Source of the DNA: Myxococcales bacterium
Lineage (GTDB): Bacteria > Myxococcota_A > UBA9042
Direction of reading: 5' to 3'
DNA length: 47,421 bases
Assembly (NCBI GenBank): GCA_009692425.1
Contig: SHZF01000035.1
Span: 1-47,421, forward strand
This document shows positions 17,403 through 42,824 of this stretch, one piece after another. How positions within the stretch are numbered: the first letter of the stretch is position 1; each line of letters opens with the position of its first letter. The translations under genes and the position numbers were made by a program. The notes under the pieces are model-generated. The model made no database searches and was not told the origin of the DNA. It saw only the letters and a list, made by a program, of their open reading frames with translations.

Positions 17403-17406
<4 letters not shown>

Positions 17407-18713: not shown

Positions 18714-18747
18714 CTTGGGCAGGCGCGCCCAGCCTGGTCAACCCCGA

Positions 18748-18890
18748 TCCGCCACCTTCGGCACAGCTCTTCGTTGTCGCTGCGGAATCGGCGTTCGAAG
18801 TACCGGGTGTACGTCTTCAGGCCGATTCCTTGCTCGGGCTTGATCTGCATCCGAATTCGGCGGCCGGCGATGGGAGTCGGTGGTGGATCC
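18748..18890 (+). repeat. Copy A of a ~140-bp intergenic repeat family (rsm22-like / cNMP-binding divergent intergenic region)
   Basis: gatccgccaccttcggcacagctcttcgttgtcgctgcgg...taccgggtgtacgtcttca...ctgcatccgaattcggcggcc...tggatcctgg aligns with copies at 22126 and 38234 (shared 5' core ccttcggc(a/g)ca..t.ttcgt(c/t)gtt, shared 3' part with the CCGAATTCGG palindrome). Confidence 0.7.
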
Positions 18891-18955
18891 TGGCCAACTG
18901 TGCCTTGCGCCGGGCAGATGCCTCGCGCTACCTTGCGGGCCGTACCGCCCGCGAG

Positions 18956-19537
18956 ATGAAGCCGATGGCCGACGCGCGTGTCCTTCCGGTGTTGCACCTG
19001 ATCAAGCCGTTGGGTTCGCTGCCCGAGGCCGACCTGCAGGTTCTCGCCGACCTGTTGCAACCGAAGTTCCTGCGTGCGGGCGAGGTCCTGTATCGGCAGG
19101 GCGACAGGGGCACCTCGATGGCGATCCTGGCGGACGGCATCCTCCGCCTGCAGTGGCAGGACCCGCGGGGCGAAGTGGCGCCACTCGGCAGCCTGAAGCG
19201 CGGGGACTTCGCGGGCGAGATGGCCCTGCTCGATCCAGCACCGCGCTCGGCGACCGTGCTCGCCGCTTCGGAGTGCCTGTGCTTCGAGCTGACGGACACC
19301 GATCTGGTGTTGTTGATGTGCCGCAGCCCGGCCGCCACTTCGCGCCTGGTATCGGCCATCACGCACGCGCTGACGAAGCGGATTCGCGCAGCGAACGAGC
19401 AACTTGAGAGCATCGTGCGAGCCAGTGCCCAGGGCGGGCGCGCCCCGTCGCAGCCCATCCGGCTGCCTGACGATGCGATCGGCGCGCGTCCCGACAGCGT
19501 GATGTCGCGGCTGTGGGCGAAGATCACCGGGGGGTAA
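18956..19537 (+). CDS. Standalone cyclic-nucleotide-binding (cNMP/CAP-effector) domain protein, no DNA-binding HTH evident
   Basis: FLRAGEVLYRQGDRGTSMAILADGILRL...LGSLKRGDFAGEMALLDPAPRSATVLAASECLCFEL is the G(E/D)xAL...R(S/T)A cNMP-binding signature. Start moved to ATG 18956 because the upstream part of the track ORF is the repeat element. Confidence 0.75.
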   Translation: MKPMADARVLPVLHLIKPLGSLPEADLQVLADLLQPKFLRAGEVLYRQGDRGTSMAILADGILRLQWQDPRGEVAPLGSLKRGDFAGEMALLDPAPRSATVLAASECLCFELTDTDLVLLMCRSPAATSRLVSAITHALTKRIRAANEQLESIVRASAQGGRAPSQPIRLPDDAIGARPDSVMSRLWAKITGG

Positions 19538-19540
19538 GGC

Positions 19541-20233
19541 ATGGCAAGTTCCGGACTCCACCTGTTGCCTGCCCGCCATGGCTTCGCGCCGGACGATCTG
19601 GAGTTGCTCACGACCGTCGGGCCAACCCGGCAGTTTGCCGTCGGCACGTACCTTTGCGAGCAGGGCAAGCCCGCGTACTGCGCGTTCCTGCTGCTGGCGG
19701 GCGAGGTCGAGGTGCTGCGTGAGGTCGAAGGGCGCACGATGTCGCTGGCCAAGATGGGGCCCGGCGAAATCGTGGGCCAACTGGCGCTCGTCGATGGCGC
19801 GCCGCGTGGCGCCTCGGTGCTCGTGCGGCGCGATGTCGAAGCCCTGCTGCTCATGCGCGACATGTTCGAAAAGCTGCTGGCGTCGCAGAGTCCACTCGCG
19901 CTGCGCTTCCAGCGCCAGGTTGCGGTCGCGGGCATTCGCCAACTGCGGCGCACGACGGAACGCTTGGCCCACGTGATGCTGGCATTGGAGCGCGAAACAC
20001 CGCGCACCGAGGAGGAGAGGGCGAGCCTCGTGCGACGGCGTCGGGACAGTGCGATAACAGCCCTGGCTGCTCTCGAAGAGCCGGGCCTCGACATGGAACT
20101 GGACCAGGAAGTGTGCGACGTCACCGACAGAACCCTCGCCATCCTCCCCCGCGGGTTCATGCCGGAGCCGCCGATCGACCAGGTGATGGCCCCTACCGCC
20201 ATCGCGACGCTTCGGAGCGGTCCTGGCAAATAG
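19541..20233 (+). CDS. Second standalone cyclic-nucleotide-binding domain protein
   Basis: YLCEQGKPAYCAFLLLAGEVEVLREVEGRTMSLAKMGPGEIVGQLALVDGAPRGASVLVRRDVEALLL is the cNMP-binding beta-barrel signature. 4 nt downstream of the first one. Its stop codon lies inside a 33-bp tandem repeat. Confidence 0.75.
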   Translation: MASSGLHLLPARHGFAPDDLELLTTVGPTRQFAVGTYLCEQGKPAYCAFLLLAGEVEVLREVEGRTMSLAKMGPGEIVGQLALVDGAPRGASVLVRRDVEALLLMRDMFEKLLASQSPLALRFQRQVAVAGIRQLRRTTERLAHVMLALERETPRTEEERASLVRRRRDSAITALAALEEPGLDMELDQEVCDVTDRTLAILPRGFMPEPPIDQVMAPTAIATLRSGPGK

Positions 20234-20300
20234 ATGGCGACGCTTCGGAGCGGTCCTGGCAAATAGTATGGCGACGCTTCGGAGCGGTCCTGGCAAGCAG
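20201..20300 (+). repeat. 33-bp tandem repeat x3 (at(c/g)gcgacgcttcggagcggtcctggcaa(a/g)(t/c)ag)
   Basis: Units at 20201-20233, 20234-20266 and 20268-20300 (1-bp spacer). Units 1 and 2 each end in TAG. Each unit encodes (I/M)ATLRSGPGK, i.e. the C-terminal decapeptide of the preceding cNMP-binding protein is re-encoded twice after its own stop. Confidence 0.85.
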
Positions 20301-20308
20301 GGGCAGCG

Positions 20309-22042
20309 CTACGGTTGCTGCCCTGCCGCGGCAGGCCCACTGGCTGCCCCAGCCGGGTCGACCTCCGCCGCCACCGGGTCGGTGGTGGTGACGGGGTCGT
20401 CGGCGTCGTCATTCCACACGAATTGGCGCCGGTGCACGTCCCACCAGCGCGCCCAGGCCCGGTGCTTGCGCAGGGCGGTCGCGTCGAGGGCGTCCGGCCC
20501 ACGCCCGAGAAGGTGGCGCAGCATCGCCTCGGCGTTGGCCGCCAGCCACGGTTGTCGTGCGGTCAACTGGGCCACCAGCCGCGGCACTGCCTGCTCCGGT
20601 CGGTCGAGGGCGTGCAGCCCGCGCAGCGCAAAGCCGCGCACCATCCACTGCCAGCGCCCGCGACCCCCATCGCGTGCCAGCCAGGACCGGGCGGCGTCGG
20701 CATCGGCGAACCCGCGATTGGCCAGGTGTTCCAAGGTCTGCAGCGCCGCGCGTCGGGCCGGCGGGCTCGCGTCGTCGAGCACATCGACGAGCGACTCCGC
20801 ACTTTCTTCGAGCAGCCACGGTCGCACCGCGCGTGCCGCCGCCGTGCGCAATTCCGAACGCGCGTCCGCGTCGAGCGAGGTGCCCAGTTCCCCGACGTCT
20901 GGACCCAACAGGGCGAGCACCTCGGCCGCGTGCTCCGGGCGCGCGACCTGCAGCGCCGTCACCGTCAGATCGCGCACGACCTGCGCTTCGGGCGCCGCAC
21001 GCGCCTGGTCCATCAGCAACGGCCACGCCATCGGAGAGGCCATGAATGCCAGCGCGTCACGCGCACGGGAACGCAGCCCCGGCTCGTCGCGCGCGGCGGT
21101 CCACGCCAGCGCCTCGACGGCGGCCCGGCTCTCTCCCTGAAACCACTTCAGCTTCTCCACCGCGGCGCCACGTCGCTCGACGGAGGGCTCGCCCAACTGC
21201 GCGACTGTACGCTGGACCTCGGCCCGCACCTCATGGTCCCACCCCTGCACCCACGGCCAGCGCGGGTCATCGTCGCTGCATCCGGCGAGGCGATCGGCGC
21301 GGCTGCAGTAGATGCGAAGGTGCAGGTGGTCATCGTGGCGGCCGGCGTGACCGGGTTCGTGCAGGACCATGCGGGCGCGCTGGACGATCCACTCCGGTTC
21401 ACCGATGGCGCGGGCCCGCGACAGCAACTGCTGCCGCAACGGCTCCGCCAGGTACATGTGTTGCACCTGCACGTGCGAGTCGGTGAGCAGGGCGCGCACG
21501 AGGTCCCAACTGCGCGCGACATCGAACACGACCGGCGTTCGCTTCCAGCGACCGCGGCCCGACGAGTCTACGGATACGAATTCATCGGGAGATAGTGGCT
21601 TTCCATTCAGATCCGTCAGGTACAACAAGATGTCTGCATCGCGGCCGGATCGATGAGAATGGCTCCACCTCATCTCGCCGCCCTCCTGCAGCGAGAGATT
21701 GCCGATGCGCACCGCCGTGCCCGCGTGGTCTGGGTTGCGTTGCAGTCCCGCCGACAACCGCACAAGCAGTTCGACCAGATCGCGCGTGGCCCACCCGGTG
21801 CCCCGCTGCGACACGACAGACAACCGCCACAGCCCCGGAGCGCGCCGTGGCAGGTCGACGCCGCTGACCAAGGCGCCGTGCTCCGAATCGCCCAGAGACA
21901 GGGAGGGGCGGTCGGTCGCGTCGAATGCGGGGCCCGCAACAACCTGGGCCACCACCGGGCGCCCGCAGAATAGCCAGCCCAGCACACACGCCCACGGCGC
22001 GACGAACCTGACGACGGTGTGACGCGTGAAGGGCCGGGCCAT
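20309..22042 (-). CDS. Penicillin-insensitive murein endopeptidase (MepA / peptidase M74)-like periplasmic protein with a long alpha-helical repeat C-terminal extension
   Basis: Signal peptide (MARPFTRHTVVRFVAPWACVLGWLFCG). RIGNLSLQEGGEMRWSHSHRSGRDADILLY matches the MepA HxSHxxGxDxD metal-binding motif. ~300 aa of C-terminal Leu/Ala/Arg-rich helical repeats. Start trimmed to ATG 22042. Confidence 0.5.
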   Translation of the reverse strand: MARPFTRHTVVRFVAPWACVLGWLFCGRPVVAQVVAGPAFDATDRPSLSLGDSEHGALVSGVDLPRRAPGLWRLSVVSQRGTGWATRDLVELLVRLSAGLQRNPDHAGTAVRIGNLSLQEGGEMRWSHSHRSGRDADILLYLTDLNGKPLSPDEFVSVDSSGRGRWKRTPVVFDVARSWDLVRALLTDSHVQVQHMYLAEPLRQQLLSRARAIGEPEWIVQRARMVLHEPGHAGRHDDHLHLRIYCSRADRLAGCSDDDPRWPWVQGWDHEVRAEVQRTVAQLGEPSVERRGAAVEKLKWFQGESRAAVEALAWTAARDEPGLRSRARDALAFMASPMAWPLLMDQARAAPEAQVVRDLTVTALQVARPEHAAEVLALLGPDVGELGTSLDADARSELRTAAARAVRPWLLEESAESLVDVLDDASPPARRAALQTLEHLANRGFADADAARSWLARDGGRGRWQWMVRGFALRGLHALDRPEQAVPRLVAQLTARQPWLAANAEAMLRHLLGRGPDALDATALRKHRAWARWWDVHRRQFVWNDDADDPVTTTDPVAAEVDPAGAASGPAAAGQQP

Positions 22043-22125
22043 GAGCGTGCGTAGCCTCCCGCGTGTCGTGCCACCGGGCAGCGCCAACCTTGCCCGCCCG
22101 CGCCCTTGAACGCAACGGGAACCCC

Positions 22126-22270
22126 CGATCTGCTGCCTTCGGCGCATTTCGTCGTTGCCGTCGTCGGTTGGCGGCTCGGCGTACCCGGTGTACGGCTTCA
22201 CCGTCGACCTCCTAGGCGCCTAGAACTGCATCCCAATTCGGCGTTCGGGAAAGGTTTGCTGATGGACCCT
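22126..22270 (+). repeat. Copy B of the ~140-bp intergenic repeat family
   Basis: gatctgctgccttcggcgcatttcgtcgttgccgtcgtcgg...tacccggtgtacggcttca...agaactgcatcccaattcggcgttcgggaaaggtttgctgatggaccctggg. Its end overlaps the first ATG of the downstream hypothetical ORF. Confidence 0.7.
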
Positions 22271-23188
22271 GGGAAACCCAGTGCCTTGCACCGGCTGTGC
22301 GCGGCGGCTACCGTGATCGGGGAGGCTGTCGTGGCCGCGTCGAACCGATTGCAGACCCTCGCCCGCGTCGCCCGCCGGCCCGCCAGCCTGTCGGTCGTGC
22401 TTGCAACTACCGTGAGTGCCGGAGCCGCCGTGGTGGTGGGCACCGGCGACTTGTGGGAGCGCGCCGAGGCGCCAGAGCCGGGCCTCGCGGTCGAGGTCCC
22501 CGTGCGCCCAGTCCCCGGCGCCCAACGCGACGACGCGAGTAGTGTCACCGTGACCGTGCGCTGGGGACACAATGGCGGCGCGCCGCATCTGCCGGGCCCG
22601 ACTCGGTGGGACGGGTGGGTGTCGCTCGACTGCGGCGAATTCGACACGGTGGCCCCCTTGGCTTTCGAGCCACCGCCGGGCGGGTTGGTGGTGGACGACC
22701 CGATGACGGCGGGGGACGAACTGGGTCCCGTCGTGCGCGGGGCCGGCGGCGACCATCGCATCTACTTTCGCTCGAGAGTCGGCGGCGACTGGGACGGGCT
22801 GAAGATCGTGCTGACGAGTTGCAGTGCCCCGGACCCGGCTGCGACGGCAGGCCAACAGGCGGCCAGCACACTGCGGATCGCCACGCCGTTTCGCAGCTAC
22901 GTGGCGCGCCTCGACTGGAGCGTCGACGACTTCGTGAGCTTGGGTGCCGGACCGGGTGGCAGTACCCTGGACGTCCACATCGCCGCCAACCGCGACGCGC
23001 GCAACATCCGGGGAGCCCGCGTGACCCGGGCGCAACCCCCAAGCGCGGGGACGGAGGGCGTGTCTCTCGAAGCGATGGCGGAGCCGGCGGTCGACGAGGA
23101 CCCGGTGTCACCTCTTGAGGCACCCGGCCTGCACGGCACGCCGTCCGGCCTGGTTCGCGAACGACCGAGCGCACTGCTGGTCCGCTGA
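22262..23188 (+). CDS. Hypothetical protein (~308 aa), Trp/Asp-rich, no recognised domain
   Basis: Protein-like composition (e.g. TVRWGHNGGAPHLPGPTRWDGWVSLDCGEFDTVAPLAFEPPPGGLVVDDPMT) versus Arg-rich antisense frames. The start is uncertain because the ATG sits inside repeat B. The stop abuts the flotillin stop (convergent, 0 nt). Confidence 0.35.
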   Translation: MDPGKPSALHRLCAAATVIGEAVVAASNRLQTLARVARRPASLSVVLATTVSAGAAVVVGTGDLWERAEAPEPGLAVEVPVRPVPGAQRDDASSVTVTVRWGHNGGAPHLPGPTRWDGWVSLDCGEFDTVAPLAFEPPPGGLVVDDPMTAGDELGPVVRGAGGDHRIYFRSRVGGDWDGLKIVLTSCSAPDPAATAGQQAASTLRIATPFRSYVARLDWSVDDFVSLGAGPGGSTLDVHIAANRDARNIRGARVTRAQPPSAGTEGVSLEAMAEPAVDEDPVSPLEAPGLHGTPSGLVRERPSALLVR

Positions 23189-24769
23189 TCAGCCCCGGGT
23201 GTTCTTTGGCGGCGACGGCCTGGCGGGCGGCGTCGGCTCGTCGTTCCGCTTAGGCCCGCCGTCGTCGGCCCGGATGCGGCCCAATGCTTCGGGCAGGTCG
23301 ATGCCGCCGATGTCCTTGACCATGTGCATGACGGGCGGCAGCGCACCGGCGAGGCTGCGTAGGAATTCCGAGGTCGAGCCCTTGCCGTCGCCGCGACCGC
23401 CCTCCCACACCACGATCTTGTCGAACTTGATGTTCTGAATGGCGCTCGATGCTGTATCTGCCAGATGATCCACGTGTTCGAGCATCATCAACTGGAAAGC
23501 CTTGTCGGCTCCACCTGCGGCTTCGACGAGCGACCTGAGCGCCTCCGCCTTGCGCTGGAGGATCTCCGCCTCGCCGCGTGCCTGCGCACTCAGCCGCGCA
23601 TAGGTAGCGCCCGCCTGGGCCTCGGCATCGATGCGCACCCGTTCGGCGGCCGCCTCGGCATCGACGACCGTCTTCGCTTTCTCCGCCTTGGCTGTCGCTT
23701 CGACGTCGGCCCGCTGCTCGGCCTCGCGCTTCTTCATGAACTCGAGGGCCGCCAGCGTCTCCGCGGCGTACTGAGCCTGCAAGACGGCGGCTTCGGCCTC
23801 GCGCCTTTTCGTTTCCGCCCGCTGGCGCGCCTCCGCTTCCTTCACCTGCAGGTCGGCATTCGTGGCGACGACGCGCGCCCGCGCCTGGTTCTCGCCTTCG
23901 ACCGCATGGGCATCGGCATTGGCGACGCGTACACGCTTTTCGCGTTCGGCTTCCTTGACTGACGACTCGCGCTCGTTGGCGGCCTTCTGTTCGCCGACCA
24001 CCCGGTCGCGCTCCAGGTTGGCGACTTCGATGGCCTGCTCCTGTTGGGCCTTCGTCACGCCGATCTGGCGGTCGCGCTCGGCCATCGACACGCTCACGGC
24101 GCGCTCGCGCTCGGCCTCGGCGACACCGATCGCGCCGCGCTTCTGCTGCTCGGCCACGTCGATGACGGCCTGCTGCACGGCTTCGGACGCCGCCTTGCGC
24201 CCGATGGCCTCAATGTAGCCGGATTCATCCGTGATATCCGTAATGTTCACGTTGATCAGCACGAGGCCGATCTTGCGCAACTCCGGCTCGAGGCCCTCCT
24301 TGATGCTCTCGCGAAAGGTGTCGCGGTCCTTGTTGATGTTCTCGATCTTGAGCCCGGCGATGACCTGGCGCAGTTGGCCGAAGATGATGTCGCGGGCTTG
24401 CTCGACAATCTGCTGGCGGTTGAGCCCCAAAAGACGCACGGCGGCGGCGTTCATCAGTTCGGGCTCGACCCCGATGGCGACCGTGAAGTTCGACGGCACG
24501 TTGACGCGGATGTTCTCGGCCGACAGCGCGCCGGACAGCGGAATCTCGATCTGCACCGGCTCCAGCGACAGATACGCGTAGTTCTGGATGAGCGGCCAGA
24601 TGAAGGCGCCGCCGCCGTGCAGACACTTCGACGACTGGCCGCCGCCGACCTTGCCGTACACGACGAGAATCTGGTTCGACGGGCAGCGCCGGTAGCGCGT
24701 CGTCACCAGCAGCAGGAACGAAAAACCGAGCAGAGTCGCGAAGATGACGAGCAAGACGATGGCATTCAT
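23189..24769 (-). CDS. Flotillin-like SPFH/band-7 protein (YqiK/FloA-type), 526 aa
   Basis: N-terminal TM segment (MNAIVLLVIFATLLGFSFLLLV), SPFH core, then the long Glu/Ala/Arg/Lys-rich coiled-coil region (...AEREKRVRVANADAHAVEGENQARARVVATNADLQVKEAEARQRAETKRREAEAAVLQAQ...) typical of flotillins. Confidence 0.85.
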   Translation of the reverse strand: MNAIVLLVIFATLLGFSFLLLVTTRYRRCPSNQILVVYGKVGGGQSSKCLHGGGAFIWPLIQNYAYLSLEPVQIEIPLSGALSAENIRVNVPSNFTVAIGVEPELMNAAAVRLLGLNRQQIVEQARDIIFGQLRQVIAGLKIENINKDRDTFRESIKEGLEPELRKIGLVLINVNITDITDESGYIEAIGRKAASEAVQQAVIDVAEQQKRGAIGVAEAERERAVSVSMAERDRQIGVTKAQQEQAIEVANLERDRVVGEQKAANERESSVKEAEREKRVRVANADAHAVEGENQARARVVATNADLQVKEAEARQRAETKRREAEAAVLQAQYAAETLAALEFMKKREAEQRADVEATAKAEKAKTVVDAEAAAERVRIDAEAQAGATYARLSAQARGEAEILQRKAEALRSLVEAAGGADKAFQLMMLEHVDHLADTASSAIQNIKFDKIVVWEGGRGDGKGSTSEFLRSLAGALPPVMHMVKDIGGIDLPEALGRIRADDGGPKRNDEPTPPARPSPPKNTRG

Positions 24770-24802
24770 GGTGGGGCAGCCTCGCGATCGAAAAATGTCA
24801 GG

Positions 24803-25366
24803 TCAAGGATTGCGTTCGACTTCAAAAGTCTGTGCATCAATACGTTTTCTGACGTGCACACGCGCCCCAGTCGGTATCTCGGGACCGGATGTCATGGCGA
24901 GCAGTTCCGCCTCGCGTCCCTCGATGCTGACCGTGATCTTGCCGGTGCCCGCCATCGCCCCGGGCACGCGCAGGTAGACCGTCGCCGGCAGGCCGACCGC
25001 GCGGCCCACGTCGAGGGTACCGGAGACCTGGAGCCTGGCAATGCCGCGCATCATCACGACGACGGCGGCCATCGCGGCCACCCCGCACAGGGTCGCCAAC
25101 ACGGCGCGCAGGGCGTCCGACGCGATGTTGGCCTCTTCCGCCGCCAGTCCGCCCAACCCGAAGAACGCGCAGAACGCCGTCAAGGACTTCAGCGACAGGA
25201 TCGACGCAAAGGCCGTGGACGAGTCTCCCGCGTGGTCGCCGACGTGGAGTTCGGCCCCGCCGTCGTGGGGCAGGTCGGCGTGGCCGGAGCCGATCAACTG
25301 GAGCACGATCTGCACGACCAGCAGGGTGCAGCCGAGCGCGGCGGTGACGAGGAAGACGAGGTGCAT
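24803..25366 (-). CDS. NfeD-like membrane protein (YqiJ-type partner of flotillin)
   Basis: Multi-pass hydrophobic N-terminal region plus a soluble C-terminal beta-rich (OB-like) tail. Positioned immediately upstream of the flotillin gene (33-nt gap), the canonical nfeD-flotillin operon arrangement. Confidence 0.55.
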   Translation of the reverse strand: MHLVFLVTAALGCTLLVVQIVLQLIGSGHADLPHDGGAELHVGDHAGDSSTAFASILSLKSLTAFCAFFGLGGLAAEEANIASDALRAVLATLCGVAAMAAVVVMMRGIARLQVSGTLDVGRAVGLPATVYLRVPGAMAGTGKITVSIEGREAELLAMTSGPEIPTGARVHVRKRIDAQTFEVERNP

Positions 25367-25633
25367 CGCGCGGGAGGATAGGCGCAGGGGCTGGCGCTTG
25401 ACAACCTAGGGTCTGCTCCGCGGCAGGCCGCTCGCAAAAACGCCAACCTCCAGGGCCATCGCCAGTGTGCGCATCGCTGACAAACTGATCCGGTCATCGC
25501 TCTGAAACTGACCCACCCGTGCCCACTGCCGGGCGTTGCGGCAGCACGCCGCCGGCTCCAGCGGCCCGCTCTTGGCAGTCGTTGGCGTCGTGCGGGTGGT
25601 AGTGCAGCGTCGAACCGCAGCACGCCCGACACC

Positions 25634-29428: not shown

Positions 29429-29450
29429 GGCGATTCCTGTTGCGTGGCGA

Positions 29451-30443: not shown

Positions 30444-30821
30444 GGGGCGGCGAGAATAGGCCGCAGGCGGCGGGGTGTACAGCGGGGCGGTGCGCCCCTG
30501 ATCCGGCGACAAGGGCGCATCTGCGCTGACATCAAGGCGAAACCGGCGCTTGCAGTACCACGTGTACAGCGTCGCGCCGATGTCTCAGGGGGAACTGGTC
30601 GACCCATTGTACTACCGCAACGGAATCGTCCACGCCGATGTAATCCGCGCTGGCGTCGAGGTCGCGCACGGCCTGGTCGGTCCAGACCAGTTCCAGCGGT
30701 TGCCTTGGTTCAGCGTGCTTCAGGCTGCTCCCTGCCCAAAGCGGTGGATCCGGGCCGCTTGAGCGCAACCGTGCCGTCGTGCACACTCCGGCCCTGCTTG
30801 CCGGAGGCGCCGATGGCCCGA

Positions 30822-32189
30822 ACCCTTGCGATGATCATGGCCGGCGGCAAGGGCACGCGCTTGACGCCCTTGACCTCCTACCGTGCCAAGCCCGCGGTAC
30901 CGTTCGGGGGCCGCTACCGCATCATCGACTTCGTGCTGTCGAATTTCATCAACTCGGGCTACCACCGCATCAAGGTGCTGACCCAGTACATGTCGTCGTC
31001 GCTGATCACGCACCTGAACCGCAATTGGCACCTCGGCGGCGGGCTCGACCAGTACATCGACCCGGTGCCGGCGCAGATGCGGCGCGGCGAGCACTGGTAC
31101 GTCGGCACGGCGGACAGCGTCTACCAGAACCTGAACCTCATCCAGGACGACCACGCCGAGCACGTAGCCGTCTTCGGCGGCGACCACATCTACAAGATCG
31201 CCGTCGACCAGATGGAGGCCTGCCATGCGGAACTCGACGCCGACCTGACCATCGCGGCCTACCCCGCCACGAAGGAAGAAGCGTCGGCGTTTGGCGTCAT
31301 CGAGGTCGACACGACGGGCCGCATCACCGGCTTCCAGGAAAAGCCGAGCCCCGCTGAGGCGCGCACCATCCCCGGCCGGCCCGACACCTGCCTGGTTTCG
31401 ATGGGCAACTACTTTTTCAAGCGCAAGGTTCTCGAAGAACTGCTGATCCGCGACAGCGAAGACCCGACGTCGACCCACGACTTCGGCAAGGACATCATCC
31501 CCCGGATGGTGCGCGAGGGCTTCAAGGTCTTCATCTACGATTTCAGCACGAACCGCGTGCCCGGCGAGTCGGTCGACGCCGAACCGTACTGGCGCGACGT
31601 GGGCACCATCGATTCCTTCTTCGACGCGAATATGGACCTGCGCGCGGTGCTGCCGGCGTTCAACCTCTACAACCGCAAGTGGCCGATCCGCACGGCGATG
31701 TACAACCTGCCGCCGGCGAAGTTCGTGCTCGCCGGCAAGCAGCGCGAGTACGGCCAGGTCATCGACTCCCTGGTGTGCGAAGGGACCATCGTCTCGGGCG
31801 CGGTGCTGCTCAACGTCGTGGCCGGGACAGATTGTTACTTCCATCGTTTCGCGAGCATCGAGAACAGCGTGATGCTCGGGCAGATTCGCGTGGGCCGCTC
31901 GTGCTGGCTGCGCAATGTGCTGGCCGACCACAACGTCAGCATCGCGGACGGCACGACGATCGGCTACCACCCGGACCAGGACCGCCAGCGCTTCCCGTTC
32001 GTGTCGCCACGCGGCATGATCGTGCTGCCGAAGGGGACGCACGTGCCCGCCGAAGGGCCGATCGAGGTGCCCGAAGACATGGTGTTCATGCTCCAGCAGG
32101 ACCCGGCGGTGTCGGACATCTTGAAGGCGCGGCCGGAGTCATTCGTCAGCGTGCAGCGCCACAGCAACGACGCGGTGCGGGCGGTCTAG
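30822..32189 (+). CDS. glgC: Glucose-1-phosphate adenylyltransferase
   Basis: MARTLAMIMAGGKGTRLTPLTSYRAKPAVPFGGRYRIIDFVLSNFINSGYHRIKVLTQY is the canonical GlgC N-terminus. The upstream part of ORF 29304..32189 is antisense to the beta-barrel gene and rejected. Confidence 0.9.
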   Translation, partial: TLAMIMAGGKGTRLTPLTSYRAKPAVPFGGRYRIIDFVLSNFINSGYHRIKVLTQYMSSSLITHLNRNWHLGGGLDQYIDPVPAQMRRGEHWYVGTADSVYQNLNLIQDDHAEHVAVFGGDHIYKIAVDQMEACHAELDADLTIAAYPATKEEASAFGVIEVDTTGRITGFQEKPSPAEARTIPGRPDTCLVSMGNYFFKRKVLEELLIRDSEDPTSTHDFGKDIIPRMVREGFKVFIYDFSTNRVPGESVDAEPYWRDVGTIDSFFDANMDLRAVLPAFNLYNRKWPIRTAMYNLPPAKFVLAGKQREYGQVIDSLVCEGTIVSGAVLLNVVAGTDCYFHRFASIENSVMLGQIRVGRSCWLRNVLADHNVSIADGTTIGYHPDQDRQRFPFVSPRGMIVLPKGTHVPAEGPIEVPEDMVFMLQQDPAVSDILKARPESFVSVQRHSNDAVRAV

Positions 32190-32208
32190 CTGGCGTTCGA
32201 CGGGAGTC

Positions 32209-33702
32209 ATGATGGCAGAACGGCTACGGGTCGCGTTCGCGGCGAGCGAGGTGTCGCCATGGGCCTCTACGGGAGGCCTCGGCGAGGTCGCGGCCGCCCT
32301 GCCCGGTGCCTTGGCGGCCGCCGGCTGCGATATCGCCACGTTCCTGCCGTGCTACCGCTCGCTGCGCGCCAAGGTCTACGAACGCGGGGCCCGTCTGGTC
32401 GATACCGGCATCGGCACCCGCGTTCCAGTCGGCCCCCACTGGTTGGAAGGCCGATTGCTGCGCATCGACGGCGCTCCAGGACCGGCCAGCGCACCGCCCG
32501 TGTATGCCGTTGATTTTCCGCACCTGTTCGACCGCGAAGGCATCTACGGTCATTCCGATGACCCAGCGCGCTTTGCGACGTTCTGCCGCGGCGTGCTCGA
32601 TTGTGCCCCGCGCGCGCTGGGCGGTGCGCTCGACGTGATCCACGCCCACGACTGGCACGCCGCGCTGCTGCCGGTCTACCTGAGCGGTCCCTACGCACAC
32701 CTGCAACCGCACACTGCGAGCGTGCTCACGATCCACAACCTCGGCTACCCCGGGGCGTTTGCTGCCAGCGAACTGCACGTCGCCGGCCTTGGGCCGGAGT
32801 GGCTTCACTTCGAGCGGATGGAGTTCCACGGCTACGTGTCGTTCCTCAAGGGCGGCATCGTCTGCGCTGACGTGGTCACGACGGTGAGCCCACGCTACGC
32901 CGCCGAAATCCAGACGTCGGAGTTCGGCGAACACCTCGACGGTCTGCTGCGGGCCAACTCAGACAAGCTGATCGGCATTCTGAACGGCGTCGACGGCAGC
33001 GTCTGGAATCCCAAGACCGACCCGCTCATCGCCGGGCGCTACGACGCCACCGACCTGACGGGCCGTGCCGAATGCCGCCGCCAGATGCTGGAATTCGCCC
33101 GCATGGACCCGGCCGACCCGCGCCCGGTGTTCGGCATCGTGAGCCGCATCGTGCACCAGAAGGGCCTCGACCTCGTCGCCGAACTGGTGCCGTGGCTCGC
33201 TGCCCGCGGGGTGCGCGTCCTGCTGCTCGGCACGGGCGAAAAGGCGTTGCAGGAGTGGTTCCAGGAGCGCGAGCGCCAGTTCCCCCACCACGTGCGGGTG
33301 CAACTGGAGCACAGCCCACGGCTGGCCCACATCCTCAACGCCGGCGCCGACGCGGTCTTGGTGCCGAGCCGCTACGAGCCGTGTGGGCTGGCCCAGATGT
33401 ATGCGATGCGCTACGGCGCGGTGCCGATCGTGCGTGATGTCGGGGGTTTGCACGACACCGTCGTCCACGCTACGAACGAAACGCTGGCCGCGGGCACGGC
33501 GACCGGCTTCAGCTTTCGCCACGCCGACGCCGGCGGGCTGGCGTGGGCGTGCAACGAAGCGCTCAAGATGTTCTGCACACGGCCGGCGGACTGGGCTCGC
33601 CTCCAGCACAACGGCATGACCCGCGACTTCTCGTGGGACACATCTGCGGCGCGCTACCTTGCGACCTATCGCCACGCCGTGGCCCGCCGGCGCCGCCCGT
33701 GA
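32209..33702 (+). CDS. glgA: Glycogen synthase (ADP-glucose type, GT5)
   Basis: MMAERLRVAFAASEVSPWASTGGLGEVAAALPGALAAAGCDIATFLP...VIHAHDWHAALLPVYL...PSRYEPCGLAQMYAMRYGAVPIVRDVGGLHDTV: GlgA KxGGL-type and E-x7-E motifs. RBS GGGAG upstream. Confidence 0.9.
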   Translation: MMAERLRVAFAASEVSPWASTGGLGEVAAALPGALAAAGCDIATFLPCYRSLRAKVYERGARLVDTGIGTRVPVGPHWLEGRLLRIDGAPGPASAPPVYAVDFPHLFDREGIYGHSDDPARFATFCRGVLDCAPRALGGALDVIHAHDWHAALLPVYLSGPYAHLQPHTASVLTIHNLGYPGAFAASELHVAGLGPEWLHFERMEFHGYVSFLKGGIVCADVVTTVSPRYAAEIQTSEFGEHLDGLLRANSDKLIGILNGVDGSVWNPKTDPLIAGRYDATDLTGRAECRRQMLEFARMDPADPRPVFGIVSRIVHQKGLDLVAELVPWLAARGVRVLLLGTGEKALQEWFQERERQFPHHVRVQLEHSPRLAHILNAGADAVLVPSRYEPCGLAQMYAMRYGAVPIVRDVGGLHDTVVHATNETLAAGTATGFSFRHADAGGLAWACNEALKMFCTRPADWARLQHNGMTRDFSWDTSAARYLATYRHAVARRRRP

Positions 33703-33736
33703 GCGCGTCCTGGGAATCTGAGGTAGGAGGAACGCC

Positions 33737-34804
33737 GTGAACCTGCCCTGCCCGTCGTCGTGGTTGCGCTGGGGCGCTGCCGTCGCGTTGGCCTGCATTC
33801 TGGCGGCGTGCCCGACCGAGACGCCGAGTCCGAAATCGTGGGCGATGACATTCGAGGAGTTGCCCGGCGCCCTTTTCTCCGTGTGGGGCACGTCCGCGGC
33901 CGACGTCTGGTTGGTGGGAGAGACATGGAAAAAGGACGCAGCCGGCAAGGTCGACCCGACCGGCGAGCCGACGGTGCTGCACTACGACGGCAAAGGCTGG
34001 CAGCGGCTGCACCCGGGCGGCTCGGGCACCTTGTGGTGGGTGACCGGCCTGGGCGACGACGTGTGGATGGCGGGGTCGAAGGGACTCATCCTGCGCTACC
34101 GGCGCAGCACCGGCGCATTCGAGAAGCCGGCAACGCCGAGTGGGGACCAGTTGTTCGGCATCTTCCCGCTGGCACCTGACGACGTGTGGGCGGTCGGGGG
34201 CGTGGCGGGCTGCAGCGGCGAGAGCGGCGCCTTGCTGTGGCACTGGGACGGCAAGGCGTGGTCGGTCGAGTCGCGGGTCGACGCCGGCGCCCAGGACAAG
34301 GTCGCGTGCTGGTTCAAAGTGTGGGCGCGCAGCAAGACCGACGCGTTCGTGGTCGGCAACAGCGGCCACGCGGTGCGCTGGGACGGCAAGACGTGGAAGG
34401 CGCTCTCCACCGGCGTCGAGCGCACCCTTTTCACGGTCCACGGCAACGCCACGCTGGCGGTCGCGGTCGGCGGCTTCGGCACGGGCGCGCTGGTGGAGTC
34501 GAGCGGCGCGGCGGCGTTTGTGCCGATCCCCAAGAAGCCCGCACTGCCGCAGCTCAACGGCGTGTGGGTGCCGGCCACGGGCGACGCGTTTGCGGCGGGC
34601 ATCGGCGGTGCCATCTGGCGGCGGCAGGCCGGCACGTGGAAGGAGGTCTCCGAGGCGCCACTCGCCGCGCGCGAATACCACAGCGTCTACGTGGACCCGG
34701 ACGGCGGCGTGTGGGCAGTCGGCGGGCAGATTTCGGCACCTCCCTTCGTCGGCGGGCAGTTGGGCCACTATGGACCGACGCTGCCGACGAAGATCGCGGA
34801 GTAG
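33737..34804 (+). CDS. Lipoprotein with beta-propeller-like repeats (Ycf48/BNR-like), function unknown
   Basis: GTG start with strong AGGAGG RBS. Lipobox AAVALACILAACP. Recurring DVW(L/A)VG / VWAVGG / AFVVGNSG / AFAAGIGGAIW blade-like motifs. Confidence 0.5.
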   Translation: MNLPCPSSWLRWGAAVALACILAACPTETPSPKSWAMTFEELPGALFSVWGTSAADVWLVGETWKKDAAGKVDPTGEPTVLHYDGKGWQRLHPGGSGTLWWVTGLGDDVWMAGSKGLILRYRRSTGAFEKPATPSGDQLFGIFPLAPDDVWAVGGVAGCSGESGALLWHWDGKAWSVESRVDAGAQDKVACWFKVWARSKTDAFVVGNSGHAVRWDGKTWKALSTGVERTLFTVHGNATLAVAVGGFGTGALVESSGAAAFVPIPKKPALPQLNGVWVPATGDAFAAGIGGAIWRRQAGTWKEVSEAPLAAREYHSVYVDPDGGVWAVGGQISAPPFVGGQLGHYGPTLPTKIAE

Positions 34805-34807
34805 CCA

Positions 34808-35302
34808 ATGACGACGGAGCGCCGACCGGCGTGTTCACTGCCAGACTGTCGGTCCATTGCCGGGTTTGCCGTACGCGCGCTCGTCGTGACGGGGTCGGTT
34901 GGCGGGCTGGTCGGCGGATGCGACGCAGCGCCAGCCTTGGCGCCCGCCGCCCTGTTCCCCGTGGCCGCGGCGACTGACTGGCAAGAAGTGCGCAGTTGCC
35001 GCTTTTCGGTCGAGCACGACGGCGTCCACATCCGCGTGGTGGCAGACGCCGTCGCGGCCACGCCATACCTCGCGGCACAGTATCCGCTGCCGGTTGGCAG
35101 CCGGGTGGTCAAGGTCGAGTACGACGACGCGAAGTGCTCCCACCGGGTCGGCTTCACCGCCATGCGCAAAAGCTCGGCAGGCCTGTGGGAGTGGCAGCGC
35201 ACGGATGCCAACGCGGGGGTCCAGGCCATGGATCCCGCGCGCTGCGTTGGCTGCCACAAGGCCGCATGCGTGGCGACCGACTTCGTGTGCACGCATCCCT
35301 AG
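34808..35302 (+). CDS. Small secreted heme-c protein, cytochrome P460 / c'-beta family-like (C-terminal CxxCH)
   Basis: 164 aa with an N-terminal signal/lipobox-like segment (LVVTGSVGGLVGGC) and a single CVGCH heme-binding motif 17 residues from the C-terminus. Size and motif placement are as in cytochrome P460. Family assignment is tentative. Confidence 0.35.
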   Translation: MTTERRPACSLPDCRSIAGFAVRALVVTGSVGGLVGGCDAAPALAPAALFPVAAATDWQEVRSCRFSVEHDGVHIRVVADAVAATPYLAAQYPLPVGSRVVKVEYDDAKCSHRVGFTAMRKSSAGLWEWQRTDANAGVQAMDPARCVGCHKAACVATDFVCTHP

Positions 35303-35338
35303 CCTGGGTTTCCACGCCAAACCTGCACCGGAGCCAAC

Positions 35339-36160
35339 GTGACGCAGCCCGTGTACGCCGAACTCGACAGCCGCCTACCGATTGCCTTGCGCGCTGCCCA
35401 GGTTGCGGGCGCCGTGCTGATGCGCCACTTCGGCCGCGCGGTCGCCATTGAGCTGAAGTCTCCGGTCGAACTCGTCACCATCGCCGATCGCGAGAGTGAG
35501 GCGGTGGTGGTGGCCGAACTGCAAGGCGCGTTCCCGACCGACCGCGTGCTGGCCGAAGAGGCGGACGGCCCCGCAGGTGCCCAGCGCTTGGGTGCCGAGG
35601 TCCACAGCCTGCCGTGGTGCTGGGTGGTCGATCCGCTCGATGGCACGACGAACTTCGCCCACGGCCAGCTCGCGTTCGCGGTCAGCATCGGCCTGTTGCA
35701 TTTCGGCCAGCCGGTGCTCGGCGTCGTCCACGCGCCGGCGCGTCGCGAGGTGTTCGTGGGCGGTGTGGGCATCCCGCCAACGTGCAACGGCAGGCCGATC
35801 CGCGTGTCTGACGTGGCGGACTTGGGGAACGCACTGATTGCCACTGGCTTTCCGTACGACCGGCGCCAACGGCTCGATGAACTCACGCTGTGGTTTCGGC
35901 GGGTGCTGGAGCGCGCCCGCGATTTGCGGCGGGCCGGCGCGGCGAGCATCGACCTGTGCGAGGTCGCGGCGGGGCGCCTCGACGCGTTCTATGAGGTGGG
36001 GCTGCAACCGTGGGACACCGCGGCGGGCCAGGCGATTGTCGAGGCGGCGGGCGGGCGGTTGACGGGGTTTGATGGGGGGCCACACGACGTGTTTGGGCAG
36101 CGCACGCTGGCGTCGAATGGGCGGTTGCATGGGGCGGTGGTGGAGTTGGTGGCGGGGTAG
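35339..36160 (+). CDS. Inositol monophosphatase family protein (SuhB/IMPase-like)
   Basis: TIADRESEAVVVAEL...WVVDPLDGTTNFAHG...: the IMPase metal-binding motifs (D-P-(I/L)-D-(G/S)-(T/S) and WxxDPLDGT). Confidence 0.85.
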   Translation: MTQPVYAELDSRLPIALRAAQVAGAVLMRHFGRAVAIELKSPVELVTIADRESEAVVVAELQGAFPTDRVLAEEADGPAGAQRLGAEVHSLPWCWVVDPLDGTTNFAHGQLAFAVSIGLLHFGQPVLGVVHAPARREVFVGGVGIPPTCNGRPIRVSDVADLGNALIATGFPYDRRQRLDELTLWFRRVLERARDLRRAGAASIDLCEVAAGRLDAFYEVGLQPWDTAAGQAIVEAAGGRLTGFDGGPHDVFGQRTLASNGRLHGAVVELVAG

Positions 36161-36210
36161 GTCATTCGGCGGCGTCCAGCCCTGCTTCCGGGGCATTGCT
36201 GTGGACGCAG

Positions 36211-36231
36211 GCCCGCAGTTCGAACAACTGC
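36211..36231 (+). terminator. Candidate intrinsic terminator hairpin downstream of the IMPase gene
   Basis: ccgcagtt-cgaac-aactgcgg: perfect 8-bp stem with 5-nt loop, 50 nt after the stop, followed by cttgcttc (only a weak U-tract). Confidence 0.35.
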
Positions 36232-36543
36232 GGCTTGCTTCAGTCGCCCGCGGTGACCCGCTCACGCACGGTGCCGGGCAGCGCCACTTGCAGCAGCAAG
36301 CCTGCACCTTTGGCCACATCGGCGCCGGCGATGGTCCGGGTGGCGGCGCGACGGGCAGGTTTGCCGTCGGTTGCATCGACAGCGTGGTATTGGACCTCTG
36401 CCCACGGTTCGGTAGAGCCAACTGGGCCCAGCGCCAGGTCGACCGCAACGGCGTCGGTCGGACACCGGGCCGCCTGGATACGGCATCCGATGAATACTTT
36501 CCACCAGAATGACTTGCGCGTCGCGCGCACCAATGCCACGGAC

Positions 36544-36789
36544 CTAGCCGATGCCGAACACGACGCCGCCTCCGATGTGCCACGGCACATCAGCACCGCC
36601 GATGTCGAGCAAGTGCCCAAGGTTCATCAGGTATTCGACGTCGCCGAACCCGCCGCCGTGGAATCTGTAGCCGTACGTGTTGACGCCCCCTTGGCTGGCA
36701 CCTTTCGGCGCCACGTACAGCTTGCCCGTCAGCGCCGCACCGTAGCCGAACTCAACTCCGACGCCGATGCGCCGATTGCCCGCGCCCAT
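36544..36789 (-). CDS. Possible small glycine-rich protein (82 aa), glycine-zipper-like
   Basis: MGAGNRRIGVGVEFGYGAALTGKLYVAPKGASQGGVNTYGYRFHGGGFGDVEYLMNLGHLLDIGGADVPWHIGGGVVFGIG. ATG lies 2 nt after the aminotransferase stop. No signal peptide. Coding status uncertain. Confidence 0.2.
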   Translation of the reverse strand: MGAGNRRIGVGVEFGYGAALTGKLYVAPKGASQGGVNTYGYRFHGGGFGDVEYLMNLGHLLDIGGADVPWHIGGGVVFGIG

Positions 36790-36791
36790 GT

Positions 36792-38141
36792 TCAGCCCTC
36801 GAACGCCGCGTCCGTGATGTCCAGCCCGCGGTCGATGATCGCGAACCCCTCTAACAGTTGCTCGTCCGTGATGCACAGCGGCGGGTTGCACGTGAACGAC
36901 GACCAGCGCACGAACGTGAACAGGCCCTCGTCCTTGAAGAACTTCGCAAGCTTGCCCATTGCCGGATGGCTCCCGTTGTAGGGAGCGATCGGGTCGCCCT
37001 TGGCGTTGCGCCGCACGTCCATCATGCCGAACAGGCCAATGCAGCGACCCTCGGCAACCGACGGGTGGCGCGCCTGCAGGCGGTCCATCTCCGAACGCAT
37101 CAACCCTTGCAAGCGCGCGGCATTTTCGATCATACCTTCGTCGATCATCACGCGAATCACCGCCTCAGCGGTCGCCATGCCCACCGGGTGCGAGTTGTAG
37201 GTCAGCCCGCCCCAGAACACATTGGTCTGAAAGAAGTCGTGGAGTTCCTTGCGCATTCCCACCGCGCCGAGCGGAAAATACGACGACGTCAGCCCCTTGG
37301 CCATCGTCACGAGGTCGGGCGTGATGCCGAAGTGCTCGTAGGCCATCATCTTGCCCGTGCGGCCCATGCCCGCCATCACTTCGTCGCAGATGAGCAGGAT
37401 GCCGTGCTTGTCGAGCAGCGCGCGCAGCTTCGGGAACCAGCCCGCGGGCGGCACCAGCACGCCGTTTGTGCCGGTCACGGTCTCGACGATCATCGCGGCG
37501 ATGGCCTTCGGGTTTTCGTACTCGATCACCTCCTCAAGATAGCGCAAGTGGTTGTCGCAGCGCTCGGCGTCGGTGGTTCCGAACGAGAACTGGTAGGGCG
37601 TCGGGTCCATCACCCGCACGACGCCCGGTGCGCCCGGCTCTGACGACCAGCGGCGCGGGTCGCCCGTCAGTTGCATGGTCAGGTTCGTGCCGCCGTGGTA
37701 GCTGCGGTAGCGGCTGATGATCTTGTGGCGGCCCGTGTACTGGCGCGCAAGTTTGATGGCGTTCTCGTTGGCCTCAGCGCCGCCCAACGTGAAGAAGAAC
37801 GATTGCATACCCGGCACGACCTCCGCCAACAGGCGGGCCAGGCGGGCGCGCGGCAAGGTCGCCGTCTGGGGGTAGACGAAGATCAGTTCATCGAGCTGCT
37901 TCTTCATCGCCGCGATGACCTTGGGGTGCTGGTGGCCGATCAGCACAGACATCAGCTGGGCGTTGAAGTCGAGGATGCGCTTGCCCTCAGGAGTGTAGAT
38001 GTAGACACCGCCGGCCCGCGCGATCGGCAGAGGATCGACCGCGTTGCCGGCGGACCAGGTGTAGAGCGTGTGCTCCTTGCACAGGCGGATCATCTCGGCG
38101 GTGGACATCTCAGCGGCGGCAGGGGCGGCGGCGTCGGGCAT
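36792..38141 (-). CDS. Class-III (omega-amino acid:pyruvate type) PLP-dependent aminotransferase, 449 aa
   Basis: FFFTLGGAEANENAIKLAR..., IVETVTGTNGVLVPPAGWFPKLRALLDKHGILLICDEVMAGMGRTGKMMAYEH, VTMAKGLTSSYFPLG (PLP-Lys). Start trimmed from the track ORF to the ATG at 38141 (MPDAAAPAAAEMSTAEMIRL), which has GAGG ~10 nt upstream. Confidence 0.85.
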   Translation of the reverse strand: MPDAAAPAAAEMSTAEMIRLCKEHTLYTWSAGNAVDPLPIARAGGVYIYTPEGKRILDFNAQLMSVLIGHQHPKVIAAMKKQLDELIFVYPQTATLPRARLARLLAEVVPGMQSFFFTLGGAEANENAIKLARQYTGRHKIISRYRSYHGGTNLTMQLTGDPRRWSSEPGAPGVVRVMDPTPYQFSFGTTDAERCDNHLRYLEEVIEYENPKAIAAMIVETVTGTNGVLVPPAGWFPKLRALLDKHGILLICDEVMAGMGRTGKMMAYEHFGITPDLVTMAKGLTSSYFPLGAVGMRKELHDFFQTNVFWGGLTYNSHPVGMATAEAVIRVMIDEGMIENAARLQGLMRSEMDRLQARHPSVAEGRCIGLFGMMDVRRNAKGDPIAPYNGSHPAMGKLAKFFKDEGLFTFVRWSSFTCNPPLCITDEQLLEGFAIIDRGLDITDAAFEG

Positions 38142-38233
38142 GGGAGACCTCGGTGCGTAGGGCGGGCGCCGGGTGCAACGACCCGTGCACAGAGCGGGTG
38201 GATAGCACAAGCGGCGGGGCGTCGCGAGGGGAG

Positions 38234-38376
38234 TGCGACACCCCGACTCGCCGCCTTCGGCACATTTCGTCGTTGCCGTCGTCGGTGTGCGGTTCGACCT
38301 AGCCGATGTGCGGATTGATCGACAACACCTCAGAACGGCACCGGAATTCTGCGAACCGGGCAGGTTTGCCGGTGGA
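38234..38376 (+). repeat. Copy C of the ~140-bp intergenic repeat family (upstream of the aminotransferase gene)
   Basis: gactcgccgccttcggcacatttcgtcgttgccgtcgtcggtgtgcgg...cagaacggcaccggaattctgcgaaccgggcaggtttgccggtggaccccggg. The 5' 45 bp are nearly identical to copy B. The 3' part is more diverged. Confidence 0.65.
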
Positions 38377-38439
38377 CCCCGGGATTGCCGAGGTCCAACA
38401 CAGACGGCCTCTGCGACCGCTGTGTGTCGCGATGGCGGT

Positions 38440-41890: not shown

Positions 41891-41987
41891 CCCCAGCACA
41901 GCGCCTTGCCCGCCGCGGTGGCGGCGCAGGTGAAGTCGCCCGCGAGGTCATCGCCGCAGTCCACGACAAGGCGCATATCGAACGCCG

Positions 41988-42327
41988 CTTGCCTCACCTC
42001 GGGCTGTGGCCCGACGCCCACGACATCGTGGCGATTCGCGGACCGCCCGACGACTTCGCCGCGCCAGACAACGAACCCGGCGCGCAATGGGACGGGATCG
42101 ACGAACTGGAGTCGCTGTCGTGGGCGGCGTGAGGCCCGCCTGACCGAATCCGCCGGTGATGTTCGGGCGCAGTGGCTCGGCTGGGCGGCCGCGATCCGCT
42201 CGACAAGACGCAAACGTGTGTTGACGAGGGCTTTTGGCGGCCGCAGACTCGACCTCGGGCGGCTCACGGGCGGCTCCGGAGCCGCAGCCAGGCGGTGGGA
42301 CGGCAGGGCGATGGGGCATTGCGTGTC
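41988..42327 (+). repeat. Direct repeat copy 1 (part I 41988-42130, 158-bp unique insert, part II 42288-42327) flanking the SLOG gene
   Basis: tcacctcgggctgtggcccgacgcccacgacatcgtggcgattcgcggaccgcccgacgacttcgccgcgccagacaacgaacccggcgcgcaatgggacgggatcgacgaactggagtcgctgtcgtgggcggcg, then later aggcggtgggacggcagggcgatggggcattgcgtgtct. ~90% identical to 42825-43029. Confidence 0.8.
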
Positions 42328-42813: not shown

Positions 42814-42824
42814 ATCGAGCGATT

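Follow-up and report, generated by a model that had tools for sequence, protein, structure and literature searches.

A hairpin-forming miniature repeat family, probably a mobile element, in a Myxococcales genome from Lake Baikal

Bacterial miniature inverted-repeat transposable elements (MITEs) derive from insertion sequences (ISs) of the DDE type; examples are Correia/NEMIS in Neisseria and RUP in Streptococcus. The enterobacterial repetitive intergenic consensus sequences, or intergenic repeat units (ERIC/IRU), are imperfect palindromes of about 127 bp in intergenic regions. Repetitive extragenic palindromic (REP) doublets forming hairpins (REPINs) occur in Pseudomonas, E. coli, Salmonella, Thioalkalivibrio, and Nostoc, these being the genomes named in the parts of Bertels & Rainey 2011 (PMC3116915) from which all our REPIN comparisons are taken. 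Those parts describe a pair of inverted ends under strong conservation and a more variable spacer that compensatory changes keep as a hairpin. They also describe an unpaired tail that complements the opposite end, clusters in tandem, and movement that is thought to depend on REP-associated tyrosine transposases (RAYTs). Here, we describe a family of repeats of about 150 nt in a 47,421-nt contig (SHZF01000035.1, the window) from a Lake Baikal Myxococcales metagenome-assembled genome (MAG; locus tags EXR79_). We think it likely that the family is a non-autonomous, hairpin-forming foldback mobile element that is MITE- or REPIN-like.

An nhmmer profile of the copies had exactly four matches in the 47 kb (E values from 7e-47 to 1e-19), and the next match had an E value of 0.8. 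Three are full copies (A, B, and C) and one is partial (D); full copies are 147 to 157 nt long. Blastn within the window paired B with C (E = 4e-20; 73%, 152 nt), B with D (7e-17; 84%, 70 nt), A with B (1.5e-12; 71%, 178 nt), and A with C (2e-5). A repeat-finding scan returned the three direct copies plus an inverted pair involving D (75 nt, 83%). Pairwise identity was 74% for B and C and 82% for B and D, and A was the most divergent, with 59 to 66% identity to the remaining copies. Therefore, the repeats that the initial annotation had reported at essentially these coordinates are far above chance. It had placed all of them in intergenic or promoter regions, which is true of A, B, and C. Copy A lies between a divergent rsm22-like gene (start at 18713, minus strand; protein encoded at 17406-18713) and a cyclic nucleotide monophosphate (cNMP)-binding protein gene (ATG at 18956, plus strand). 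Copy B separates a divergent M74-peptidase (mepA-like) gene (ATG at 22042, minus strand) from an unannotated plus-strand open reading frame (ORF), and copy C is 100 nt upstream of a class-III aminotransferase gene (ATG at 38141, minus strand). Copy D, however, adjoins a truncated DUF29 pseudogene. The flanks of A to D are unrelated to each other, so the copies are not a segmental duplication. Some extra similarity between A and B outside the element (GTGCCTTGCRCCGG) also occurs at element-free sites in the relative described below, and therefore it is ancestral flank.

The conserved 5' and 3' blocks of the initial annotation are complementary to each other and form the arms of a hairpin of about 128 nt, which is followed by a tail of about 22 nt; this hairpin, the main feature of the family, had been missed. 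The complementarity is plainest in copy E, which lies outside the window. Its left arm, CCCCGATC.GCC.CCTTCGGC.CATTTCG, pairs with the right arm, GAACTGCATCCGAATTCGGCG..CGGGG, in a basal helix of 25 pairs. Three more helices complete the rod: one of 4 pairs, one of 11 pairs that includes the core 9-bp stem, and an apical GTAC-N5-GTAC hairpin. All copies conserve the tail (..GGTGGAYCCYGG; ..GGTTTGCTGGTGGAYCCYGG), whose sequence complements the extreme left end (10/12 in A and 9/12 in E). The best terminal inverted 12-mers matched at 10 of 12 positions in A (p≈0.006) and at 9 of 12 in E (p≈0.04), and a longer inverted repeat joins the left end to the internal right arm. The palindrome CCGAATTCGG, which had been proposed as a conserved core, is no more than a stretch of the right arm, and only A and D have it in perfect form. 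At this place B has CCCAATTCGG, C has CGGAATTCTG, and E has CTCGAAATCGAC. Short arm palindromes of 10 to 14 nt vary among the copies in general, E having CGCCG-CTTT-CGGCG and TCGA-AA-TCGA where A and D have CCGAATTCGG.

On the minus strand, copy E was predicted to fold into a near-continuous rod of 47 pairs at -75.3 kcal/mol, compared with -56.1±4.2 kcal/mol for shuffled sequences (z=-4.5; 0/200 as good), whereas its plus strand reached only -58.6 kcal/mol. A unit of a distant tandem array (L061; see below) had a z of -2.5. Copy A folded better on its plus strand. B (z of about +0.5 on both strands) and C (+0.1 to +0.7) folded no better than shuffles, and C, with only 24 of the 47 pairs in Watson-Crick form, has the most broken pairs of any copy. 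The inner stem is perfect in E (GGTTGGCGG/CCGCCAACC) and reads ACAGCCG/CGGCTGT in the L061 unit. In B (Table 1) it has the same position as in A but a different sequence, which is a compensatory difference. All four of these stems enclose a conserved box, TCGA.GTACC....GTACG; in A, this box is TCGAAGTACCGGGTGTACG, which contains GTAC-N5-GTAC.

We built a covariance model (CM) from E, B, A, and C, with the rod of E as the structure. It recovered all copies and also the distant L061 relative over its full length (44 bits, E=3e-7). When the five members were aligned to the model, 82.9% of cells were standard pairs, compared with 32 to 40% when partners were slid by one to three columns. Changes on both sides affected 20 of the 47 pairs (3 to 6 when slid), and none of 500 column shuffles reached any observed measure. 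An alignment made with the model leans toward the structure, and the count was repeated on a structure-blind MAFFT alignment. There, 77.9% of cells were paired and 14/47 pairs had double changes (2 to 8 when slid). Again, 0/500 shuffles reached the percentage paired, the double-change counts, or the covariation score; the count of further pair types was weaker, and 17/500 shuffles reached it. Therefore, the hairpin is a feature of the family that has been kept by compensatory changes across its subfamilies.

The nearest relative within reach is L006, an ENA contig with an Rsm22 of 76% identity. Synteny extends from rsm22 through the two cNMP-binding protein genes and mepA to the next gene, but copies A and B are missing. 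L006 aligns with the flanks of site A at 77% (left, to 18742) and 76% (right, from 18895), and 11 nt lie between them there versus 152 nt in the window. Site B has 26 nt between its flanks in L006 versus 186 nt in the window. The nhmmer profile found no element copy anywhere in L006. The only two occurrences of TTGCRC-N17/18-TACCKT in the 47 kb (0.05 expected) are beside copies A and B, outside the element (Table 1), and both of these promoter-like motifs are conserved at the element-free orthologous sites in L006. Since L006 keeps the motifs, A and B would have landed at nearly equal distances upstream of similar putative -35 boxes. Lying only 11 to 13 nt away, they could affect them.

The family extends beyond the window. 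When 1.84 billion representative proteins were searched with a profile built from the translated copies, three proteins were found that read through related repeats (P0043, P0044, and P0045); P0046, from the same search, was a low-complexity false match. The DNA of P0043 is on two ENA contigs (L059 and L060) and contains copy E, which is 84% identical to B and thus closer to B than A or C are. It sits in frame in the 5' end of a gene for a cysteine-rich lipoprotein (L059 5526-5740 = L060 2397-2611). The P0043 ORF starts at an ATG 20 nt upstream of the copy. It encodes MSRHGPA, about 51 residues from the element, and then AIPLLCLAAC (…WWILAAIPLLCLAAC), and so runs into a lipoprotein signal peptide; removal of the element would leave a compact lipoprotein signal peptide N terminus, MSRHGPAIPLLCLAAC. 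P0045 contains an A-like copy on a third ENA contig, known from the protein only, between two co-directional genes. P0044 marks the L061 array, which is just downstream of a methionine aminopeptidase gene and in which each unit keeps the long hairpin. A-like and B-like subfamilies spread across assemblies are what a propagating family would produce. The initial annotation had named an absence of other copies, an absence of conserved ends, and local segmental duplication as outcomes that would speak against its MITE/REP-like reading. What we found were members in other assemblies, conserved ends, and dispersed copies with unrelated flanks; together with the empty L006 sites and the noncoding character of the element (see below), these findings favor that reading. 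As a separate matter, a CCTTGCGC motif, like those after A and B, is 55 nt upstream of copy E.

Other searches returned no further members. The clusters of P0043, P0044, and P0045 are singletons, with no element-free variant among them. Translated-repeat queries of a 5.8-billion-protein index found nothing and missed P0043 too, so this negative says little. A 5'-block pattern (CCTTCGGCRCANNTCNTCGTTG) had four matches in GTDB genomes, a collection from which the MAG itself is evidently absent; they were in unrelated phyla, with similarity only over the 22-mer, which is chance. In JGI metagenomes, a two-block pattern had 0 matches. A 3'-half pattern had 52 (L007 to L058), none with family similarity beyond the pattern, which is also chance. 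Nearly all of the 52 fall in one conserved coding motif (..YGPFREAA.SAPQFGDRRSYQMD..) of a gene that we take to be the porphobilinogen synthase gene (hemB), and the few others are unrelated; a degenerate pattern of 26 positions can still be dominated by one conserved gene. Copy E had no blastn match in plasmid and phage records. Apart from at least one distant relative, the family appears to be restricted to a narrow freshwater lineage that has been poorly sampled.

Table 1. Positions of repeat copies and associated features (window coordinates unless a contig is named)
Feature	Position	Strand	Details
Copy A	18741-18897	+	Full length; hairpin ~18742-18870, tail ~18871-18893; CM 140 bits, E=1e-26
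Copy B	22122-22276	+	Full length; hairpin ~22122-22250, tail ~22251-22272; CM 165 bits
Copy C	38240-38386	+	Full length with 8-nt internal deletion; CM 111 bits
Copy D	3399-3478	-	3' half only (hairpin right arm and tail); nhmmer E=1e-19
Copy E	L059 5545-5698		nhmmer 2e-35; DNA of P0043, on ENA contigs L059 and L060
L061 tandem array	5091-5438		NCBI GCA_964580805.1, CAZOMS010000054.1 (P0044); 2.7 head-to-tail 129-nt units, 97% identical
Central stem-loop of A	18784-18829	+	Perfect 9-bp stem, GGAATCGGC (18784-18792) / GCCGATTCC (18821-18829)
Central stem-loop of B	22166-22209	+	GGTTGGCGG (22166-22174) / CCGTCGACC (22201-22209); 9 pairs including two G-T
Direct repeat of A	18733-18742 / 18889-18898		CCTGGTCAAC / CCTGGCCAAC; 9/10 match, p≈0.008
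Direct repeat of B	22117-22125 / 22271-22279		GGGAACCCC / GGGAAACCC; 8/9 match, p≈0.02
Direct repeat of C	38230-38237 / 38381-38388		GGGAGTGC / GGGATTGC; 7/8 match, p≈0.09
Direct repeat of E			CCAGCCCC / CCATCCCC; 7/8 match, p≈0.09
Promoter-like motif beside A	18905-18934	+	TTGCGC-N18-TACCTT; outside element; starts 11 nt past CCTGG end of A (18893)
Promoter-like motif beside B	22286-22314	+	TTGCAC-N17-TACCGT; outside element; starts 13 nt past CCTGG end of B (22272)
DUF29 pseudogene	3106-3447	-	5'-truncated at copy D junction; frameshifted by exact 32-nt tandem duplication

Short direct repeats flank the full copies (Table 1; p values are from 5000 random placements in the window), and this is suggestive of movement. 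Their length cannot be fixed because the element opens with a C-run and ends in GG. Copy D is informative in another way. Its 3' end directly adjoins the first retained codon of DUF29, where the profile match starts at position 52 of 138; the pseudogene is without approximately the first 51 profile positions, and the missing N-terminal third had no match upstream in any frame. An element end joined to the interior of a gene suits insertion and not a regulatory module. The tandem duplication that frameshifts the pseudogene is at 3262-3325 (3262-3293/3294-3325). The pseudogene lies between convergent acnA and putA genes, names that the initial annotation gave to long ORFs outside our Pfam scan. 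The idea that the repeat is itself the missing N-terminal half of DUF29 was rejected, as the profile matches no frame of any copy and its match to the pseudogene has a sharp start at position 52.

All five copies (A to E) share one open frame, and because of this the same peptides recur in the ORFs of the initial annotation, which was right to call those ORFs spurious. An open frame of 50 codons is expected about 1 time in 3 at 68% G+C. No frame of the element had a Pfam match, and substitutions are even across codon positions (6/10/10 for B-E, 14/15/14 for E-C, and 19/20/23 for E-L061); only comparisons with A had a mild, nonsignificant excess at third positions. Therefore, the element is noncoding. 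Rfam found nothing in the window at gathering thresholds and, at permissive thresholds, only far sub-threshold chance matches around B and E. Scans for consensus promoters and terminators around A, B, and C also found nothing. Some other resemblances were dropped by eye: to attC sites (no GTTRRRY/RYYYAAC cores), to retrons (no reverse transcriptase gene), and to sigma-54 promoters (wrong GG-GC spacing).

How might such a family arise? We propose that a transposase encoded elsewhere in the genome would recognize the paired or inverted ends. The unit would be moved or copied to new sites, mostly intergenic and occasionally inside genes, and insertion would leave short flanking direct repeats. 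Lineages that still propagate would have to keep the fold by compensatory changes, and we propose this need as the reason for the covariation. Copies that are no longer mobilized would decay, as B and C may have done (fold z ≥0), or be truncated near the hairpin apex, as with D. No host role would be required.

Several points weigh against a mobile element. Mobility is inferred from presence or absence and from distribution and was not seen directly. The absence of A and B from L006 could in principle reflect two independent deletions. No transposase domain was found in the scanned ORFs of the window or in the related loci (L006, L059, L060, and L061). The direct repeats are imperfect and of ambiguous length (4 to 10 bp), with a word length that was picked after looking, and site A in L006 carries two weak CAAC-containing repeats, so the duplication at A may partly predate the insertion. 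The terminal 12-mers of B (7/12) and C (6/12) are not significant. The covariation comes from five DNA copies in all. Finally, no member appeared in the GTDB and JGI pattern scans.

If, as one rival reading has it, the element were of the REPIN type, a sub-case of the mobile-element reading, the arms would be inverted REP-like sequences moved as single-stranded DNA by a single-copy RAYT, which is an IS200-like HUH tyrosine transposase. The architecture fits the parts of the REPIN description that we used (PMC3116915) in having arms, a covarying spacer hairpin, and a tail complementary to the left end. There is also a tandem array in L061, and each arm holds a short palindrome (CCGAATTCGG in A and D; two in E). 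However, these palindromes are short and poorly conserved, no conserved tetranucleotide is beside the element ends, and no Y1 transposase was found in the window, L006, L059, L060, or L061. Furthermore, the flanking direct repeats are above chance, whereas IS200/IS605-type transposases, from which RAYTs derive, are not expected to duplicate their target. We therefore regard the REPIN type as possible but doubtful, and we lean slightly toward a DDE-type (MITE) enzyme over an HUH/RAYT-type one because of the flanking duplications and inverted termini. Membership of either class is incomplete, as no cognate transposase, the defining partner, was found in the DNA examined, and the flanking and terminal repeats give no clear verdict on target duplication or on inverted termini.

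A structured RNA that serves the host would also suit the strong covariation. It could be an mRNA-stabilizing or RNase-processing hairpin or a cis-regulatory leader, which spread by duplication and whose hairpin is under selection in a transcript. In its favor, all non-Watson-Crick pairs in the two best-preserved members, E (6:0) and L061 (3:0), are G-U when read on the minus strand, which for E is also the strand with the better fold, by 17 kcal/mol. Copies A, B, and C precede minus-strand genes by 29 to 100 nt, and the copy in P0045 is between co-directional genes. However, for E the asymmetry is in part circular, because the structure was defined from its fold, and A, B, and C do not show it (G-U:A-C = 9:10). 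Shuffled sequences fold as well as B and C do, and A prefers the plus strand. The orientation relative to neighboring genes is inconsistent, D and E are inside genes, and the orthologous L006 sites lack the element. With neither a promoter nor a terminator consensus around A, B, and C and no Rfam match, the small-RNA alternative in the initial annotation loses its support, which still allows a role for the hairpin at the RNA level. On balance, we consider a structured RNA quite unlikely. The other alternative in the initial annotation, read as an operator or promoter module whose CCGAATTCGG dyad would serve a transcription factor as its binding site ahead of the co-regulated genes of a regulon, seems to us very improbable. 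A and D do have a perfect 10-bp dyad, and A and B do adjoin the only two promoter-like motifs of their kind in the window. But L006 keeps these motifs without the element, B, C, and E have only a broken dyad, and 150 nt of similarity far exceeds what an operator needs. The neighboring genes are functionally unrelated, and D is in a pseudogene. We give similarly little credence to a translated in-frame insert in the style of the Rickettsia palindromic elements (RPEs), which would add about 50 residues to proteins. The shared open frame, the continuous L059 ORF from an upstream ATG through E into the signal peptide, and the L061 unit of 129 nt (43 codons, open across the array) suit it. Against it are the absence of codon-position bias and of Pfam matches, the ease with which such frames stay open at this G+C content, and the position of A and B outside genes and upstream of promoter-like motifs.

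Compared with the systems described at the outset, the family resembles REPINs, as far as the parts of that description used here go, in being made of non-autonomous units of about 100 to 150 nt with inverted ends, a compensating hairpin spacer, and a complementary unpaired tail. Within the same limits, it also resembles them in its occasional tandem clusters, its mostly extragenic location, and its decaying half-copies ("singlets"; compare D). It differs in its target-duplication-like flanking repeats, its short and variable arm palindromes, the lack of a RAYT in the DNA examined, and its occurrence in Myxococcota, and it has no sequence similarity to REPINs. The likeness to DDE MITEs lies in small, noncoding, dispersed units that are present or absent between relatives, near promoters, and sometimes in genes, with short flanking direct repeats, inverted termini, and subfamilies shared between genomes. 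Unlike those elements, the whole unit here, and not only its termini, is self-complementary and covarying, and the terminal inverted repeats are weak (9 to 10 of 12 at best). We know of no parent IS with ends that match this element. Like ERIC/IRU, it is an intergenic, unit-spanning imperfect palindrome of similar length, with truncated variants and a patchy distribution among relatives; the sequence and phylum are unrelated, and the element here is without evidence of transcription. RPEs are also palindromic repeats of about 100 to 150 nt that can occupy the reading frame of a gene, as is the case for copy E. However, most copies here are outside genes and have no codon-level conservation.

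The family adds a miniature foldback repeat to Myxococcota, a phylum for which literature searches, Rfam, and plasmid and phage records gave no earlier description of one; our literature searches on MITEs or RAYTs in myxobacteria or Myxococcus found nothing relevant. The element explains spurious ORFs and N-terminal extensions in the annotation of high-G+C MAGs, as in P0043, which has a 60-residue artifactual or inserted N terminus. It also marks recent genome change, namely, the disruption of DUF29 and insertions beside promoter-like motifs. The covariance model could serve to count copies and hunt for the transposase in complete genomes. A RAYT-like partner, if found, would extend the REPIN-RAYT association to another phylum, and without one the family would be an ordinary example of bacterial selfish DNA. 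We hold it to be unlikely that the family is more than decaying selfish DNA, namely, a Myxococcota counterpart of REPIN-RAYT systems or a hairpin that the host uses as a single strand or RNA. In that case the hairpin would be under selection on one strand, as the exclusively G-U mismatches of E and L061 on the minus strand suggest, and insertions beside promoters (A and B) or into a signal peptide in frame (E) would rewire expression.

The rest of the window is ordinary chromosome. Exact look-ups of its proteins in other assemblies returned only a 1-kb Logan contig of run SRR8561390, a run cited in a metagenome paper on Lake Baikal. Pfam matches among its ORFs include NAD synthase, Ppx/GppA phosphatase, nucleotidyl transferase (GlgC-like), starch synthase, inositol monophosphatase, the class-III aminotransferase, the two cNMP-binding proteins, and the M74 peptidase, together with an IgGFc-binding protein, a response-regulator cyclase, and a histidine kinase. 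About 700 nt beyond copy C (38390-39070) have no codon-position G+C signal and no Rfam match, and a terminator-like hairpin is at 38865-38880 within this stretch. At 20201-20300 a 33-nt unit occurs three times in tandem (97% and 91% identical), and the first unit corresponds to the end of the second cNMP-binding protein gene (its final 11 codons and the stop codon). The gap between the convergent genes at this site is 36 nt in L006 versus 75 nt in the window, and the array looks like a recent tandem duplication of the 3' end of the gene. Two further repeats are found at 41943-42128/42780-42965 (186-nt segments, 90% identical, offset 837 nt) and 42246-42328/42946-43028 (83-nt segments, 78% identical, offset 700 nt). 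The region from 41943 to 43028 appears to be a diverged tandem duplication around a YspA/SLOG-domain ORF at 42172-42810.

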